The position numbers were made by a program, and so were the translations under genes. 64,000 nucleotides of DNA. Origin: Dictyostelium discoideum. Lineage: Eukaryota. The DNA lies in NCBI GenBank assembly GCA_000004695.1, contig CM000153.2, positions 2,944,001 to 3,008,000 of the forward strand, in the 5' to 3' direction. Below, in pieces: positions 6,299 to 44,608 of the stretch. Numbering within the stretch: the first letter of the stretch is position 1; each line of letters opens with the position of its first letter. The notes below the pieces were generated by a model. That model saw only the letters and a list, made by a program, of their open reading frames with translations. It was not told the DNA's origin and did not search any database.

Positions 6299-6404
<106 letters not shown>

Positions 6405-6718
6405 TTTTTTTTTTTTTTTTTTTTAAAATTTAATTTTTTTTTTTTTTTTTTATTTATTTATTTTTATTATTTACAAAAAAATTTATGGTATCAGTGATGG
6501 TGTGATATTCTATATTTGATTTATAGGAAATGTACTATAAAATAAACTTTTAGTTCTTTATTGTCTTTCCTATTTTTTTTTTCTTTTTCTTTTTCTTTTT
6601 TTTTTTTTTTTTTTAATATTTTGGATTGTTATTTTTTTTTTTATTATTTGTAACAAATAATTTGTTATTTTATACAACTCTATTTTTTTTTTTTTTTTTT
6701 TTTTTTTTTTCCTACAGG

Positions 6719-6753
<35 letters not shown>

Positions 6754-7021
6754 GTGTCACTTATGTTTGTTATAACTATAGTTGTTGGAGTGTGTGTGTG
6801 TGTAAATTTAACAAATACTACCACTATATATAATGGCAGTTGTTAATGGGTCAAAATCTACCTTTTTTTTTATTTTTATTTTTTTATTTTTTTTTTTTAG
6901 TGTTGAAAAAAATAAAATAAAATAATAATAATATTATTAATAATATGGGGAAACAAAATAACGGTTGAGTACTTTATTTCCCTTTGCTTCTTCTCCTCCT
7001 TGGTTTCTTTATTTTTTTTTT

Positions 7022-7072
<51 letters not shown>

Positions 7073-7532
7073 CTTATTATTAAAAAAAAAAAAAAAAAAA
7101 AAAAAATTTGAAAAAAAAAAAAATTTAAAAAAGGTTTAGGTTTGCAATCAAAAAAAAAAAAAAAATTAAAAAAATAAAAAATAAAAAAAAAAATTTCAAA
7201 AAATAAAAAAAAATAAAAAATATCTTTTTTTTATTTCAAATAATAAGAAATTTAGTTTAAAAAATGATATTAATAATAATATTTTATTTTATTTTAATTT
7301 TTTTTTTTACCAGTTAAATTAAATACAGATATCAATTTTGTTACTATTATTAGTATTTTTTATTTTTTTTATTTTTTTTTTACCATGCTAATACCATCAC
7401 CTAATACATAATTTTTTTTAATCAGCCTCCATTTTTCAAAAAATTTTTTTTATTTTTTTTTTTTATTTTTTTTTTTTATTTTTTATTTTAAATTTTTTAC
7501 TATTGCTAGATAATTTAATTTTATTAATTGAT

Positions 7533-8479
7533 ATGTTGAAAGATGATAATAATGATATAGGTCAACACCAACCAAGCCAACAACAACAACAAAATAATAA
7601 CGAAGATAATGACGATATGAGTGTGGGGGATTTATTTCTTAATAAATCATATGTCAAAAAAACACTAGAATATTTTGGAGTAAATGTCAATTTAAATGTT
7701 TTAGATTCAGCATCAAGTAAAAATTATATTTATTTATTTTTATTTTTATTTTTATTTTTATTTTTACAAGATTATTTTTTATAATAATAATAATATTAAC
7801 ATATTTTTATTTTATTTTTTTATTTTTTTTATTTTTTTTTAAAAAAAAATCAGCTGATTTTGATTTAACAGGTCAAGTAATTTGGCCATCAGCACAGGTA
7901 TTAACTCAATATATTATAAAGAATCAAGAAGAATATAAGAATAAGAAAATTTTAGAAGTTGGATCAGGAGTTGGTGTATGTGGATTATTTTTAGCAAAAT
8001 TAGGTCAACCATGTACTCTTAGTGATAATAATGAGGTTGTATTAGATTTACTAAGATTAAATGTTGAAGAGTCAACAGCAGATGGTTATAAATGTGATTG
8101 TATTAAATTAGATTGGGGTAATCAAGAAGATATGGATAATTGTTTACTAAAATCAAAAGATAATGATAATAGTGCTGGTGGATTTGATATGATAATTGGA
8201 TCGGATATAGTTTATTGGAAAATTGGAATTGTACCATTATTTAAAACAGTTTCATATTTACTTAAACATAATGATGAAAACTCAAGATTTGTTACATGTT
8301 ATCAATCAAGATCAACTCAAACTGATAATTATCTTTTAGAACAAGCAACTTTACATGGATTCGAATATGAATTCAAACCAATAGAAACATTTTTAGATCG
8401 TTCTCTTTTAACTTTTAATGAAGATTCAACAATTTCAATTATTAATTTAATAATTTTTAAAAGAATAAAAAAAAATTAA
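7533..8479 (+). CDS. METTL21/FAM86-like protein-lysine methyltransferase (Methyltransf_16 family); join(7533..7716,7854..8479).
   Basis: ATG at 7533 (the ORF-track start at 7503 is TTG). Donor GTAAAA at 7717 and acceptor CAG at 7851-7853, phase 1. The spliced product reads ...LDSAS-T-DFDLTGQVIWPSAQVL...ILEVGSGVGVCGLFLAKLG...DMIIGSDIVYW, the SAM-binding motifs of the Methyltransf_16 family. Confidence 0.7.
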
Positions 8480-9950: not shown

Positions 9951-10585
9951 AAATCTATATGAGAATTTCCATTTAAAGATTAATTAATGTTATTATTATT
10001 TTTTTAATTTTAACTTTTTATAAACATTTTTTAATAGTTATTATAAAGGTATAATAAAAAAAAAAAAAAAAAAAAAAATTTATTAAAGTGTAAAATCAAA
10101 TTTCAATATATATAAAAAAAATAAAAAAAATAAAAATAAAATAATTAGAGTTTTATTAATGGCCCAAATTATACATTATTTTTATTTTATTTTATTTTAT
10201 TTTTTTTTTTCTCTAAAAACTGGGAAAAAAATATTTTTATAAGGCTTGATCGATTTGAGATTTTTTTTTTATTTTTAATTTTTTAATTCACAAACATTTC
10301 CCACTTTTTTTTTTTTTTTTTTTAGAAATTGACTATTTCCTTTAAATTTTATATTTTTTTTAAATTTTTAAATTTTTTTTGAAAGAGTTTTTTTTTTTTT
10401 GATTATTTAAACTAGAAATCATTTATAAAAATTTAAAAAATAATTAATTAAAAAATAAATTATTAAATAAAAAAATAAATAAATAAAATAAATAAATAAA
10501 AAAATAAATAAAAAAAAATATTTAAATAAATTAATATATAAATAATTTAATTGGTAAATAAAATAATATATATAAATAAATTAAA

Positions 10586-11503
10586 ATGTTTAAACAAGTT
10601 TTTACAATTACTTTTGGAGATTGTGCTGAAAATCACGTAAATATGGAGAAACTTGGATCAATGTCAGATCGAGGTTTTGATTTAGATGATGTTACTAAAT
10701 TTAAAGATTATTTTGAAAAGAAAGGATTAACTACAGAATTTTTTGATTTAAAAGATTTAGTTAAAAAGGATAAAAATAAAAACAAAGTAAATTTATTTAA
10801 AAAGAAAAATGAAGATAAAATGAATGAGGAAGAAAAAGAAGATGATGAAGAAAAAGAAAAAGAAAAAGAAAAAGAAAAAGAAAAAGAAAAAGAAAAAGAA
10901 AAAAAAGATGAAGAAGAAGAAGAATTATTAAATTATAATGATGCATATTTATTAATTGTTAGAAATGGATTATCATCAATTTGTAATGTTAATGATTTTC
11001 ATCAAGAACAAAATAAATTAGAAAAAGATAAAAAGGCATTTATGTATGGTAGAGTTGTAAATAAAACAGCTAGACATAATCTTTGTTTTACAGATGGTGA
11101 GTCACGTGAACCAGAATATGAAAAGGGTAAGGGTAGGTTGGTATCTTTTAACGATTGTCCATTATTGAATAAAGCAAGGGAGACATTTATAGATATCCTT
11201 GGTGATAAAGCTGATGGATTGGTTGCTGAGGGTAATTACTATTATGAACCAAGCAAATGTGGAATTGGCTGGCATGGTGATGCTGAACGTCGTAAAGTGA
11301 TTGCAATCAGAACTGGTCAAAGAATGAATATTTGTTTCAATTGGTTCATAGATTCAAAACCTGTTGGAAATAAATTCATTCAATTTTTAAATCATGGTGA
11401 TATCTATATTATGTCTGAATATACAACTGGTTTCAATTGGAGAAAAAAGAAAATTCCTACTCTTAGACATTCTGCTGGTTGTTCAAAATTCACTTCATTA
11501 TAA
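10586..11503 (+). CDS. Hypothetical 305-aa protein. The C-terminal ~110 aa resemble the AlkB-type 2OG-Fe(II) oxygenase core. The N-terminal part carries an acidic (EK)n low-complexity tract.
   Basis: Single ORF with Dictyostelium codon usage and an AAAATG start context. The C-terminus GWHGDAERRKVIAIRTG...FLNHGDIYIMSEYTTGFNWRKKKIPTLRHSAG aligns by eye to E. coli AlkB LHQDKDE...LLEHGDVVVWGGESRLFYHGI...RYNLTFRQAG. The second Fe-ligand His appears replaced (W or shifted). The functional call is inference only. Confidence 0.6.
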   Translation: MFKQVFTITFGDCAENHVNMEKLGSMSDRGFDLDDVTKFKDYFEKKGLTTEFFDLKDLVKKDKNKNKVNLFKKKNEDKMNEEEKEDDEEKEKEKEKEKEKEKEKEKKDEEEEELLNYNDAYLLIVRNGLSSICNVNDFHQEQNKLEKDKKAFMYGRVVNKTARHNLCFTDGESREPEYEKGKGRLVSFNDCPLLNKARETFIDILGDKADGLVAEGNYYYEPSKCGIGWHGDAERRKVIAIRTGQRMNICFNWFIDSKPVGNKFIQFLNHGDIYIMSEYTTGFNWRKKKIPTLRHSAGCSKFTSL

Positions 11504-11669
11504 TTAAAATTTTTAATTTTTAAATAGTTATTTTTTATTGATTTTTATTACTTTTTTTTTACTAATTTTAAATAAATAAATATAATTTTTTAATTTTTTT
11601 TTCATTTATATATTAAAACTCTTTTTTTTATTTATAATTTTATTTTATTTAAGATATAACATTGTTTAT

Positions 11670-12254: not shown

Positions 12255-13100
12255 AAAAATAATTATAAATTAAAAGTGTTTGGAAACTATTAATTACTAT
12301 AAATAAGTATTTTTAACACCATTTTTACATAACACTATTTTTTATTAACATTATTTTTTAATATTATCAGTAACTTTTTAACCCTCAAACTCAAAAAAAA
12401 AAAAAAATAAATTAATAAAAAAAAAAAAAAAAAAACCAAACGAATTAAAATTTAATTATTTGTTTTAATTTACAAGTATACATATGTAAAAAAGGTGAAC
12501 TTTTGTTTTTTTTTTTTTTATAATTAAAAATGTGTGTAAATTATTTCTATTGTTTGAGGAAGTTGCATTGGTTTGGAGGGAGCAAATTTGGTGCATTTTT
12601 TTTTTAAAATTTTAAAATGAAAAGTATTTACACAAGGTCATAGGTTTCCAGTCATTTTTTGAAAATGGGACTCTCACTGTCAAAATAAAAAACTGAATGC
12701 TAAAATTATCTCTTTTTATATTCACTTGCTAAAAATAATTTAATCTAATAAATTTAAAAAAAAAAAAAAAAACTATATACATTTATATTTATGCAATTAT
12801 TTAAATGTTCATTTAATTGGATGTTTTTTATTAATTGTTTAAATTAATATGTTCACTGAAAAATAGAGTTTTGTAAAAAAATAAACAATTCCCTCTTTTT
12901 TTTTTTTTTTTGGATTTTTTTTTTTCAAACAAATGCGCGCAAAAAAAAATTAAATAAGTGAAAAAGTGAAAAAAAAAAAATAAAAAAAAAAAAAATTTAT
13001 TATTATCTAATATCAATTTAGATAAAGGTATATTGCCACATTGTAATAAAAGGTATCTTTGTCTCAATTTACCACTGTTTTATCTTTCAACTAAGCAATC

Positions 13101-13138: not shown

Positions 13139-16755
<3,617 letters not shown>

Positions 16756-40230: not shown

Positions 40231-42444
<2,214 letters not shown>

Positions 42445-43081
42445 ATAAATTAATAAATTTTAAAAATAAAATAAAATATTTTAATTTAATATATTAAATG
42501 TTTATAAAATTTAAACAAAAAAAAAAAAAACAGGAATTTAGTTTTTTTTTTTAAGCGTTTGGTTTGTTTTTTATTTTTTATTTTGCATCTTTTTTTTGAT
42601 TTTGATTTGTAATAATAAAGAGCTACAATTGGTTATAGTTTACAGCAGGTACAACCGATGGTCTAGGTGGATTTGATTTCACACAAAATGTTACTATTGC
42701 AACATTTGAAAAATATCAAATTCAAAGATACAAACCGACATCCACTGTCTCAGACCTCATACATTAGGGACCTATCAAAAAGAATTAGGTAAATGCAAAA
42801 GAAAATACATTCCAACTTTAACACCATATCAAAGGTTTTTCAAATAATTATTGTAGATTAATAAATTAAATATATATAGTGGGGTGATGCATCATACATT
42901 GTAATGATTTAATTATTTATGGGATTATTATAAATTTAAATTTTCATTTTCATTATTTGATTCATTCAATGATATCTTTTTCAATTCCTTACCCATATCA
43001 TTTTTAAAATTTATTAAAACTTAAAAGAAAAGTCATATTAAATTTGATACCTAAACAAAACATTTTATAAATTTTTTATAC

Positions 43082-44608
43082 TTATTTATATTTTAATGGA
43101 ATATCTGTTTGTGAATTGTGGAATTCAAAATGATCTTTGAAGTCAATATCTCCAGATGTTCCATCAATAGTACATACTACCCAAAATCTTGCACCAGTTT
43201 GTCGAGTGTTTGGGATACATCTTTCAAATAATGTTGAGGTTTCATGGGCAATTGTAAGCTTGGCACCTGATTGAGCTATTTCTCCTTCAGTTGAGAAATT
43301 ATGAACTGCATAAACATATTTACAACCATCTAAACGTATAATACTTATGGTTTCGGGACCAAAACCATTTTGAGTATCAGCTTCCAAGGACATTTTATCT
43401 ACACTCCTACCCCCGAAATAAACATGACTAATAGAACCATTAGGATGAATACACCACATATGAGAATCCAAATCCAGTGGTGATTCCCCCCAAGCTAAAA
43501 CGAAATCCATTTCTTTAGGCTTTTTAGGTCTACCGACATTTTGATGGCTTGAAGTGGTTCTTACAGAGTCATGTATAATCATTTTAAACTTTAAAGGTAA
43601 TAAATTACTCTTATTGGGTTTAATGATAACCTCAAATGTACCATCCAAGAGGTTTAGAGGAAGATCAGCATCACCTTGTGTAACACTGCCAGTAAACATA
43701 TTTCTACCACCATACATCAATTCAATAGTACCATCTATAGGTTCACTAAGAGGTGTTTTAATCATAAACTTTTTGGGAAGTATAATGCTTTCAGGTGGAT
43801 TGACATTAACCAATGATTTTAAGACTTCTCTTTGGCCAGATTCATCAAATATAGTTACTACATACTCTCCATAACTTGAAATATCATATGGATTTGGAAC
43901 ATTTGGTATTATTGCAATACAGTTCTTTGATTCATCATAAACTTGAGAAAAAACAACATCATCACTTGGTCCATCACAAGAAGATGGAAGAGAAACTGGC
44001 TTGCCTCTTCCTTTTGGTAAATTTGGTAGTAATGTGGCATCATATAAAGAAGGCACTTCACCAGTTAATTTTGGAATTGAGTTGGCACCAACACATGTTG
44101 GATCAATGATTGGGATTCTCTTTGATTGAGGTGATGGATTCAATATTTTATTTTGTGTTGCTGGTGATAAATTTGAAAAGTTATTTGTAGGTGGTTTGGT
44201 AACTTTCATTTGCTCAACTAGTTGTAACAATGAATTACTGAGAAGATCAATTTTACTTTTCATTTGTATGATATCTCTTTGGGTCTCAAGTGATTCTCTA
44301 CCTGTTGATGTTGGTGCATTTGAAGTATTGCCAGGTACTGGGTTTGGACTTGGGTTTGGGCTTGGGTTTGGAGTTGAGCCTGGATTATCTACAACACCAG
44401 AACCTTGTATTTCTTTAAGTTTTTTTTGAAATTTCCAAGGTACTGATAAAGTTTCATAATCTTTTTGTTCAAATAAAACAAAATCATCACCAGTGACTTG
44501 ATTTATTTTAAAACTATTAATGATGTTTGAATATTCATCACCAAGTGATGAATGTAAATATTTACACAGTTGATCACAAGATAGAGATGATATGGATCCT
44601 AACCTCAT
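43082..44608 (-). CDS. Uncharacterised 508-aa protein with a SAM-like N-terminus, a Pro/Ser-rich linker and a conserved-looking C-terminal beta-rich domain of unknown function.
   Basis: Single ORF. The N-terminal LSCDQLCKYLHSSLGDEYSNIINSFKINQVTGDDFVLFEQKDYETLSV looks SAM-like. The C-terminal ...DFVLAWGESPLDLDSHMWCIHPNG...LEADTQNGFGPETISIIRLDGCKYVYAVHNFS... shows a W..P.DLDSH ... GPE pattern reminiscent of bacterial DUF2135/YfaP-type domains. This is from memory and not verified. Confidence 0.6.
   Translation of the reverse strand: MRLGSISSLSCDQLCKYLHSSLGDEYSNIINSFKINQVTGDDFVLFEQKDYETLSVPWKFQKKLKEIQGSGVVDNPGSTPNPSPNPSPNPVPGNTSNAPTSTGRESLETQRDIIQMKSKIDLLSNSLLQLVEQMKVTKPPTNNFSNLSPATQNKILNPSPQSKRIPIIDPTCVGANSIPKLTGEVPSLYDATLLPNLPKGRGKPVSLPSSCDGPSDDVVFSQVYDESKNCIAIIPNVPNPYDISSYGEYVVTIFDESGQREVLKSLVNVNPPESIILPKKFMIKTPLSEPIDGTIELMYGGRNMFTGSVTQGDADLPLNLLDGTFEVIIKPNKSNLLPLKFKMIIHDSVRTTSSHQNVGRPKKPKEMDFVLAWGESPLDLDSHMWCIHPNGSISHVYFGGRSVDKMSLEADTQNGFGPETISIIRLDGCKYVYAVHNFSTEGEIAQSGAKLTIAHETSTLFERCIPNTRQTGARFWVVCTIDGTSGDIDFKDHFEFHNSQTDIPLKYK

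Follow-up and report, generated by a model that had tools for sequence, protein, structure and literature searches.

The gene and its domain layout

The window analysed here is a 64-kb stretch (64,000 nucleotides) of the Dictyostelium discoideum genome that is very AT-rich and in which no tRNAs were found. Its minus strand contains, at 43082..44608, an ATG-to-stop open reading frame of 508 amino acids, a complete single-exon coding sequence with its stop codon, and the open reading frame list places it exactly where the first-pass annotation had. An exact-sequence look-up shows that the translation is identical to the D. discoideum AX4 protein DDB_G0285215 (XP_638324.1; Q54NJ3), which is annotated only as a "hypothetical protein" or as uncharacterised. 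Other Dictyostelium genomes and Polysphondylium violaceum have orthologues with 49-82% identity, and the synteny with a neighboring DEAH-box helicase gene is kept in a sister genome and, more widely, in several genomes. A tblastn search found no paralogue in the window. The gene is real; contamination or an assembly artefact is ruled out by its host-like AT-rich composition (~33% GC, which is fully Dictyostelium-like), by its place in the AX4 reference annotation and by the synteny in several genomes.

Searches of Pfam, NCBIfam and the PDB sequences with the full protein and with its C-terminal region gave no match, even at E<=10, which is why its annotation still reads hypothetical. The motif strings picked out in the first-pass annotation (AWGESPLDLDSHMW, HVYFGG, LEADTQNGFGPETISI, KYVYAVHNF and FWVVCTIDG) are all in the translation. 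No signal peptide or membrane segment was detected in the protein, the maximum 19-residue hydropathy being 0.76.

The protein begins with a small helical module (aa ~5-70; 44399..44596, minus strand, as are all of the features below) that is probably SAM-like. When a profile of five orthologue N-termini was compared with the PDB, the top matches were SAM domains, i.e., SAMD12 (E=0.004), L3MBTL3 (E=0.05 and 0.07) and CNK2 (E=0.4 and 0.5); these five best specific matches are independent SAM domains that cover the same ~50 residues. Two Pfam models, SAM_1 (E=0.0015) and SAM_2 (E=0.015), match one of the five orthologue N-termini with weak E-values, and in UniRef the P. violaceum orthologue is listed as "SAM domain-containing". 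The length of the module and the number of its predicted helices would also suit a SAM domain, a five-helix bundle of ~65 residues; AlphaFold places four helices at residues 11-69. It is rather unlikely, then, that the N-terminus is an unrelated small helical bundle, in which case the "SAM fusion" would be wrong and the C-terminal assignment described below would still be right. That reading draws on the AX4 sequence itself, which matches neither SAM_1 nor SAM_2 at E<=10, on the low AlphaFold confidence over residues 1-69 (pLDDT ~43-65) and on a best profile E-value of merely 0.004. The SAM-like N-terminus proposed in the first-pass annotation thus has moderate support.

A low-complexity linker rich in Pro, Asn and Ser follows (aa 71-106; 44291..44398), which its composition and a pLDDT <50 over residues 68-105 predict to be disordered. 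The next segment is a long helix (aa 107-134; 44207..44290; pLDDT ~80) that is probably a short coiled coil; the sequence has a heptad pattern, with a 3-4 hydrophobic spacing formed by I113, M116, I120, L123, L127, L130 and M134. A second linker, Pro-rich and net basic (aa 135-208; 43985..44206), is again mostly predicted to be disordered from its composition and from a pLDDT <50 at residues 135-147 and 154-186, and an alignment of the dictyostelid orthologues indicates that it is conserved among them.

The rest of the protein is predicted to consist of three β-rich domains. The first is a β-sandwich at aa 209-272 (43793..43984), with predicted strands at 209-269 and a pLDDT of ~65-77. Relatives of it were not found beyond the dictyostelids: a phmmer search with aa 206-362 returned dictyostelid proteins and one marginal match. 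The second (aa 278-358; 43535..43777) is a prealbumin-like seven-strand β-sandwich similar to the regulatory domain of carboxypeptidase D, that is, a transthyretin-like or CarboxypepD_reg-like domain of the CnaB type. The third, a YfaP-like β-sandwich with a predicted TerD fold and high model confidence, occupies the last 143 residues (aa 366-508; 43085..43513). The C-terminal ~190 residues (320-508) had been described as one globular, beta-rich domain; the structure model agrees that the region is globular and rich in β-strands, and it divides the region into the end of the transthyretin-like sandwich (taken as 278-357) and the separate domain at 366-508.

The YfaP-like domain and a cassette shared with bacteria

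In a search of a large protein database, bacterial proteins match aa ~366-508 alone, with E-values from 1e-12 to 1e-6, and the source record of one of them calls it "YfaP (DUF2135 family)". When the Dictyostelium and bacterial domains are aligned, 20 columns are invariant. The profile made from this alignment retrieved 190 further proteins through a word index, many of them named "YfaP family protein", and an exhaustive search found 9,536 representative clusters (50% identity) at E<=1e-3, of which 6,115 reach E<=1e-10. In many of these relatives, the domain is present two to five times per protein. The family signature, which consists of W..P.DLD.H, L(D/E).D, G(F/Y)GPET, Y.Y.VH and a closing W.V, is present in its entirety in AX4, and the conservation of its columns among 340 prokaryotic domains is 85-97%. 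Two motifs stand out from this conservation and from the mapping of residues to TerD described below, WGESPLDLDSH at aa 373-383 (43460..43492) and LEADTQNGFGPETI at aa 408-421 (43346..43387).

Against residues 143-249 of Escherichia coli K-12 YfaP, the domain profile gave an hhalign probability of 97% (E=1e-10). The alignment spans the W..D.DLDLH and GYGPE motifs, the E. coli stretches being LRLVLSWDTDNTDLDLH and LDMDVTTGYGPE. In view of this match and the shared motifs, the resemblance to DUF2135/YfaP-like domains that the first-pass annotation proposed is borne out as homology, which the names of the relatives also support. No match to a well-characterised eukaryotic family was found for the C-terminal region, and its conservation clearly extends beyond the dictyostelids.

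Membership in the strict Pfam sense is a different matter. The DUF2135 HMM (PF09906) matches neither DDB_G0285215 (E<=10) nor the bacterial relatives that were scanned. This model has 48 positions, which correspond to YfaP residues 199-244, and it misses the AX4 protein because it covers only this stretch downstream of the signature motifs. Judged by sequence homology and motifs, therefore, the protein belongs to a YfaP-like family and lies outside strict Pfam DUF2135 for a technical reason. The whole family, DDB_G0285215 included, escapes standard annotation because the Pfam model takes the least informative third of the domain. No source HMM for the name "YfaP family" used by NCBI was found in NCBIfam, and the domain profile gave a lone chance match among the PDB sequences, to a lipocalin (E=0.61).

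E. coli YfaP (COG4676) and DDB_G0285215 have the homologous domain in common, with the motifs W-x3-P/D-x-DLD-x-H, L-D-x-D-x-T-x-G-F/Y-G-P-E and Y-x-Y-x-V-H, but they differ in other respects. The region that precedes the domain in YfaP matches Glucodextran_B weakly (E=0.079) and may also be a β-sandwich. The YfaP N-terminus is hydrophobic and resembles a signal peptide, whereas the eukaryotic protein has the SAM-like and coiled-coil modules and no such peptide. The E. coli gene adjoins yfaQ, the yfaS pseudogene, yfaT and yfaA in an α2-macroglobulin gene cluster; the Dictyostelium gene lies beside the DEAH helicase gene on a eukaryotic chromosome. A literature search on YfaP and the yfaS operon returned no functional account, and searches on DUF2135 and on DDB_G0285215 returned nothing.

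The homology with bacterial proteins is not limited to the C-terminal domain. BLASTP against one bacterial protein (P0010) is collinear over aa 291-503, and the match includes the Pfam CarboxypepD_reg domain of the bacterial protein. Therefore, the shared unit is a two-domain cassette, in which the transthyretin-like β-sandwich is followed by the YfaP-like domain. This pairing is found again, often in several copies, in prokaryotic proteins that have PKD repeats, T9SS sorting tails, or CWB2 or TPR regions. For example, four prokaryotic surface proteins (P0139, P0143, P0146 and P0172) have the cassette in the same order and collinear with the Dictyostelium one, at ~30-38% identity. Proteins of this type are large and secreted and have up to five cassettes, whereas DDB_G0285215 has a single cassette and no signal peptide. 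More generally, 100 of the 130 prokaryotic representatives have a hydrophobic N-terminus and many have secretion tails; all of the relatives with a checkable source or architecture are prokaryotic and typically extracellular.

A predicted TerD fold and a candidate calcium site

With a 66-sequence alignment as input, AlphaFold confidently models aa 366-508 as an all-β domain (mean pLDDT 93, pTM 0.90). A Foldseek search of the PDB with this model found nothing significant and missed TerD, and corroboration was therefore sought at the sequence level. We built a 10-member TerD profile from TerD-family genes of a Klebsiella and a Pseudomonas plasmid and the aligned sequences of four TerD-family PDB entries. 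Compared with the YfaP-like alignment by hhalign, it gave E=1.3e-4 over 99 collinear columns. The score was 33.0; by comparison, reversed profiles scored 17-21, and a set of 30 block-shuffled profiles scored 12.2+-1.7, with a maximum of 16.6. A single TerD sequence and a 3-member TerD profile gave marginal values (E=0.033 and 0.05, respectively) in an unchanged register, so that the link is convincing only with the 10-member profile, which includes divergent Streptomyces structures. At the HMMER level there was no match to Pfam TerD, and no TerD chain appeared in the PDB profile search at E<=10. Where canonical TerD has GDNRTGEGDGDDE, two divergent TerD structures, SCO6318 (...TGQGFGFVEE...) and SAV2460 (...DGKGFGWDE...), have sequences that look intermediate between it and the ...DGFGPE... 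of the YfaP-like domains.

Taken together, these results predict that aa 366-508 adopt the TerD β-sandwich fold and place the domain, as a divergent one, in the TerD superfamily. It belongs there by its predicted fold and by the Ca1 residues described below; it is outside Pfam TerD and has neither the canonical motif nor a complete Ca2 site. The proteins TerD, TerE and TerZ (Pfam TerD; 2kxt, 2qz7, 3ibz and 2qng) are ~13-15% identical to the YfaP-like domain. They are single-domain proteins of ~190 residues encoded in ter operons, whereas the YfaP-like domain has 143 residues and is part of a multidomain protein; the 13-residue TerD motif GDNxTGxGDGDDE is replaced in it by D-x-x-x-G-F-G-P-E, with a deletion of three residues. 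The TerD fold is a point that the first-pass annotation did not contain. A connection between YfaP and TerD may already stand in the literature on Ter systems.

D. discoideum also has a canonical TerD homologue. A Dictyostelium cAMP-binding protein resembles TerD and TerE (PMC8123226), and this protein, CABP1 (capA/capB), is like DDB_G0285215 in having a TerD-superfamily domain that apparently came from bacteria. However, CABP1 falls within the canonical Pfam TerD family, and DDB_G0285215 represents a separate YfaP-like branch, with a SAM-like module, a coiled coil and two β-sandwiches.

Two Ca2+ sites are described for Klebsiella TerD in PMC8779313, which cites Pan et al. 2011, and the binding of Ca2+ by TerD is also stated in PMC8123226. 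According to PMC8779313, site Ca1 is formed by residues 40, 41, 42, 78, 79 and 89 and site Ca2 by residues 29, 82, 84 and 88. In the hhalign alignment, the six Ca1 residues D40, L41, D42, D78, N79 and E89 correspond to D379, L380, D381, D411, T412 and E419 of AX4. By alignment position, the four acidic residues of Ca1 are thus identical in the two proteins. Within the YfaP-like family, their columns are also the best conserved, the residues being present in 92-97% of the 340 prokaryotic domains and kept in the dictyostelid copies; the values are 92-93% for D379-L380-D381, 96% for D411 and 97% for E419, and the neighboring G417 and P418 reach 95% and 93%, respectively. Two positions call for caution about this site: at position 412, Asp occurs in 70% of the prokaryotic domains and never in dictyostelids, and position 409, which is Glu in AX4, is Asp in 92% of the prokaryotic domains.

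The Ca2 site is another case. TerD W29 corresponds to W373 when a shallower TerD profile is used, and G82 and G84 correspond to G415 and G417, but D88 has no AX4 equivalent. The TerD residues G86-D87-D88 are deleted, the TerD motif GDN(R/L)TG(E/A)GDGDDE being replaced by D-T-Q-N-G-F-G-P-E. The Ca2 site would therefore be incomplete, because the three-residue deletion removes the equivalents of D87 and D88. These alignments suggest that the YfaP-like domain has one divalent-cation site of the Ca1 type.

One could also regard the C-terminal domain as a generic β-sandwich binding module of the adhesin or carbohydrate-binding type. The likeness to TerD would then be at the level of the fold, the conserved acidic residues would be structural and there would be no TerD-type calcium site. 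We consider this quite unlikely and favor a Ca1-type site in a TerD-related domain.

Origin and possible role

Among the database matches that carry a eukaryotic label, all are from Dictyostelium species and P. violaceum. The first-pass annotation had expected a SAM fusion of such a domain to be unusual in a eukaryote, and it appears to be so, since none was found in eukaryotes beyond Dictyostelium and Polysphondylium. No other representative among the best 150 has the Dictyostelium-type N-terminal or middle region; the SAM-like module, the coiled coil and the missing signal peptide are peculiar to the Dictyostelium proteins, and in the other organism groups searched no protein had the complete arrangement of SAM-like module, coiled coil, β-sandwich, transthyretin-like domain and YfaP-like domain without a signal peptide. 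These statements should be read with the knowledge that most of the database relatives are taxonomically unlabelled and that the word-indexed search can miss orthologues, as it did with one of them (P0176). A scan with the back-translated motif DDTDGFGPET, which samples domains with the exact motif only, found 47 loci distributed among Proteobacteria, Bacteroidota, Bacillota, Planctomycetota, Myxococcota, Actinomycetota, spirochaetes, Gemmatimonadota, Ignavibacteriota, Verrucomicrobiota, Campylobacterota and DPANN archaea.

Judged by this distribution, the cassette was most likely acquired from bacteria in a recent ancestor of the dictyostelids and then fused to host modules. An ancient eukaryotic inheritance that was lost elsewhere, or a transfer from eukaryotes to bacteria, is very unlikely. 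Eukaryotic members could be hidden among the unlabelled relatives, and the composition of the gene is that of its host; however, the relatives number in the thousands and are diverse across many bacterial phyla and archaea, the labelled eukaryotic ones are confined to one narrow clade, the Dictyostelium-type N-terminal and middle regions occur in no other representative among the best 150, and the pairing of the two domains is a recurrent prokaryotic unit. The 16 candidates for gene transfer from bacteria to D. discoideum that have been published (PMC3188802) comprise, among others, canonical TerD (capA/B) and Cna_B (colossin), and DDB_G0285215 is not one of them.

Overall, we think it somewhat probable that DDB_G0285215 is a soluble protein in which a SAM-like module has been joined to a horizontally acquired bacterial cassette and that its function is metal-dependent binding or scaffolding. 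A common prokaryotic building block of secreted and surface proteins would have been transferred from bacteria to the dictyostelid ancestor, where it was joined to the SAM-like module, the short coiled coil and the additional β-sandwich. The resulting multidomain protein would presumably be cytosolic. The SAM-like module and the coiled coil would oligomerise it or dock it to partners, and the transthyretin-like domain would be a spacer. The YfaP-like domain, which keeps the equivalents of the Ca1 residues (D379, L380, D381, D411, T412 and E419), would bind one cation, most likely Ca2+ and otherwise another divalent cation, through D379, D381, D411 and E419 at the loop end of the sandwich, and a small ligand or a partner could be bound together with it.

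Very improbable is the reading of the YfaP-like domain as a metal-dependent enzyme working through the conserved Asp/Glu cluster and three histidines, H383, H395 and H436: these histidines are present in all dictyostelid copies and in 79%, 70% and 58% of the prokaryotic domains, respectively, and the annotation of one relative reads putative metalloprotease, but the histidines are not invariant, the annotation concerns another part of a multidomain protein of 1,856 residues, the two to five tandem copies per protein are typical of binding modules, and we know of no enzymatic activity described for TerD-fold proteins. DDB_G0285215 would thus be a binding or scaffolding protein and not an enzyme.

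A broader and more tentative possibility is that the YfaP-like domains form a very large, essentially undescribed and mostly extracellular branch of TerD calcium-binding domains (>9,500 clusters and no adequate Pfam model), and that its capture by dictyostelids and fusion to a SAM-like module without a signal peptide produced an intracellular, calcium-responsive scaffold. If the cassette was indeed captured from this branch, it would represent a bacterium-to-amoeba transfer beyond the published 16, and the TerD fold would have reached Dictyostelium twice independently. No long-standing question is resolved by these findings. What they provide is a probable bacterial acquisition in the social amoebae in which a formerly extracellular module now has an apparently intracellular setting and is fused to a eukaryotic interaction domain. 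The predicted TerD fold with its one conserved putative calcium site would also give a structural and mechanistic handle on YfaP/DUF2135, a protein of E. coli K-12 without functional annotation, and on thousands of related domains in prokaryotic surface proteins.

Dictyostelium development relies on calcium and cAMP signalling. This dependence, together with the description of the canonical TerD homologue as a cAMP-binding protein, makes DDB_G0285215 a reasonable candidate for a knockout.

Gene copies in Dictyostelium genomes

The gene DDB_G0285215 is single-copy within the AX4 window, and in the sister genome, Dictyostelium cf. discoideum (GCA_054859235.1), related copies are present at positions 6538-7987, 10001-11536 and 13593-13869 of the corresponding locus, L004. 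One of them is a tandem paralogue located about 2 kb upstream; the gene model for its 415-aa product (P0006) does not include a SAM-like N-terminus. A third copy is partial and consists of the 3' end of a gene of this type. Paired nearby genes of the DDB_G0285215 type are also found in other Dictyostelium genomes.

The convergent neighbor of DDB_G0285215, on the + strand at 40261-42444, encodes a 727-aa DEAH-box RNA helicase that has the motifs GETGSGKT and DEAH and ends in a tail rich in Ser and Gly. The L004 counterpart of this helicase has Pfam matches to DEAD, Helicase_C, HA2 and OB_NTP_bind, and the two are 95% identical at the DNA level. The 640-bp spacer that separates the helicase gene from the 3' end of DDB_G0285215 contains a short coding-like fragment (42619-42689, + strand, with TDGLGGFDFTQNVTIATFEKYQIQRYKP inside it), which is matched twice in L004, at 8283-8354 and 12404-12475, with 93-96% identity. 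One of these two matches falls within a gene for a 136-aa protein that has a Ceramidase_alk Pfam match. The window fragment looks like the remnant of a ceramidase gene that moves with the duplicated unit.

Divergent and irregular orthologs

P0001, a Logan-derived fragment, is 97% identical to the AX4 protein encoded at 43082-44608 of the window, and P0002 (ACTFIW_002191), a protein that carries the label Dictyostelium discoideum and belongs to a recent NCBI assembly, is only 79% identical. The latter assembly may represent a divergent lineage or a cryptic species. A third protein, P0004 (ACTFIY_011937, 482 aa), is irregular in another way. Two stretches of it (residues 292-423 and 431-482) match the C-terminal part of the YfaP-like domain, and most of the linker downstream of the SAM-like region is absent; the pattern points to either a local partial duplication or a problem with the gene model or the assembly.

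Pfam coverage and Streptomyces TerD homologs

The Pfam model PF09906 (DUF2135) has 48 positions and, in the E. coli K-12 YfaP protein (encoded at 6371-7144 of the yfaP locus, L001, - strand), spans just residues 199-244. The N-terminal two-thirds of the YfaP-like domain, which are conserved and carry the DLDxH and GxGPE motifs, lie outside this model. Annotation that relies on Pfam therefore misses a family with more than 9,500 clusters.

Two divergent Streptomyces homologs of TerD have replacements at the place of the canonical TerD calcium motif, GEGDGDDE. The replacements are GQGFGFVEE in SCO6318 (PDB 2qz7) and GKGFGWDE in SAV2460 (PDB 2qng), and both resemble the GFGPE of YfaP-like proteins. 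At the level of these motifs, the two proteins look like intermediates between the TerD and YfaP-like families.
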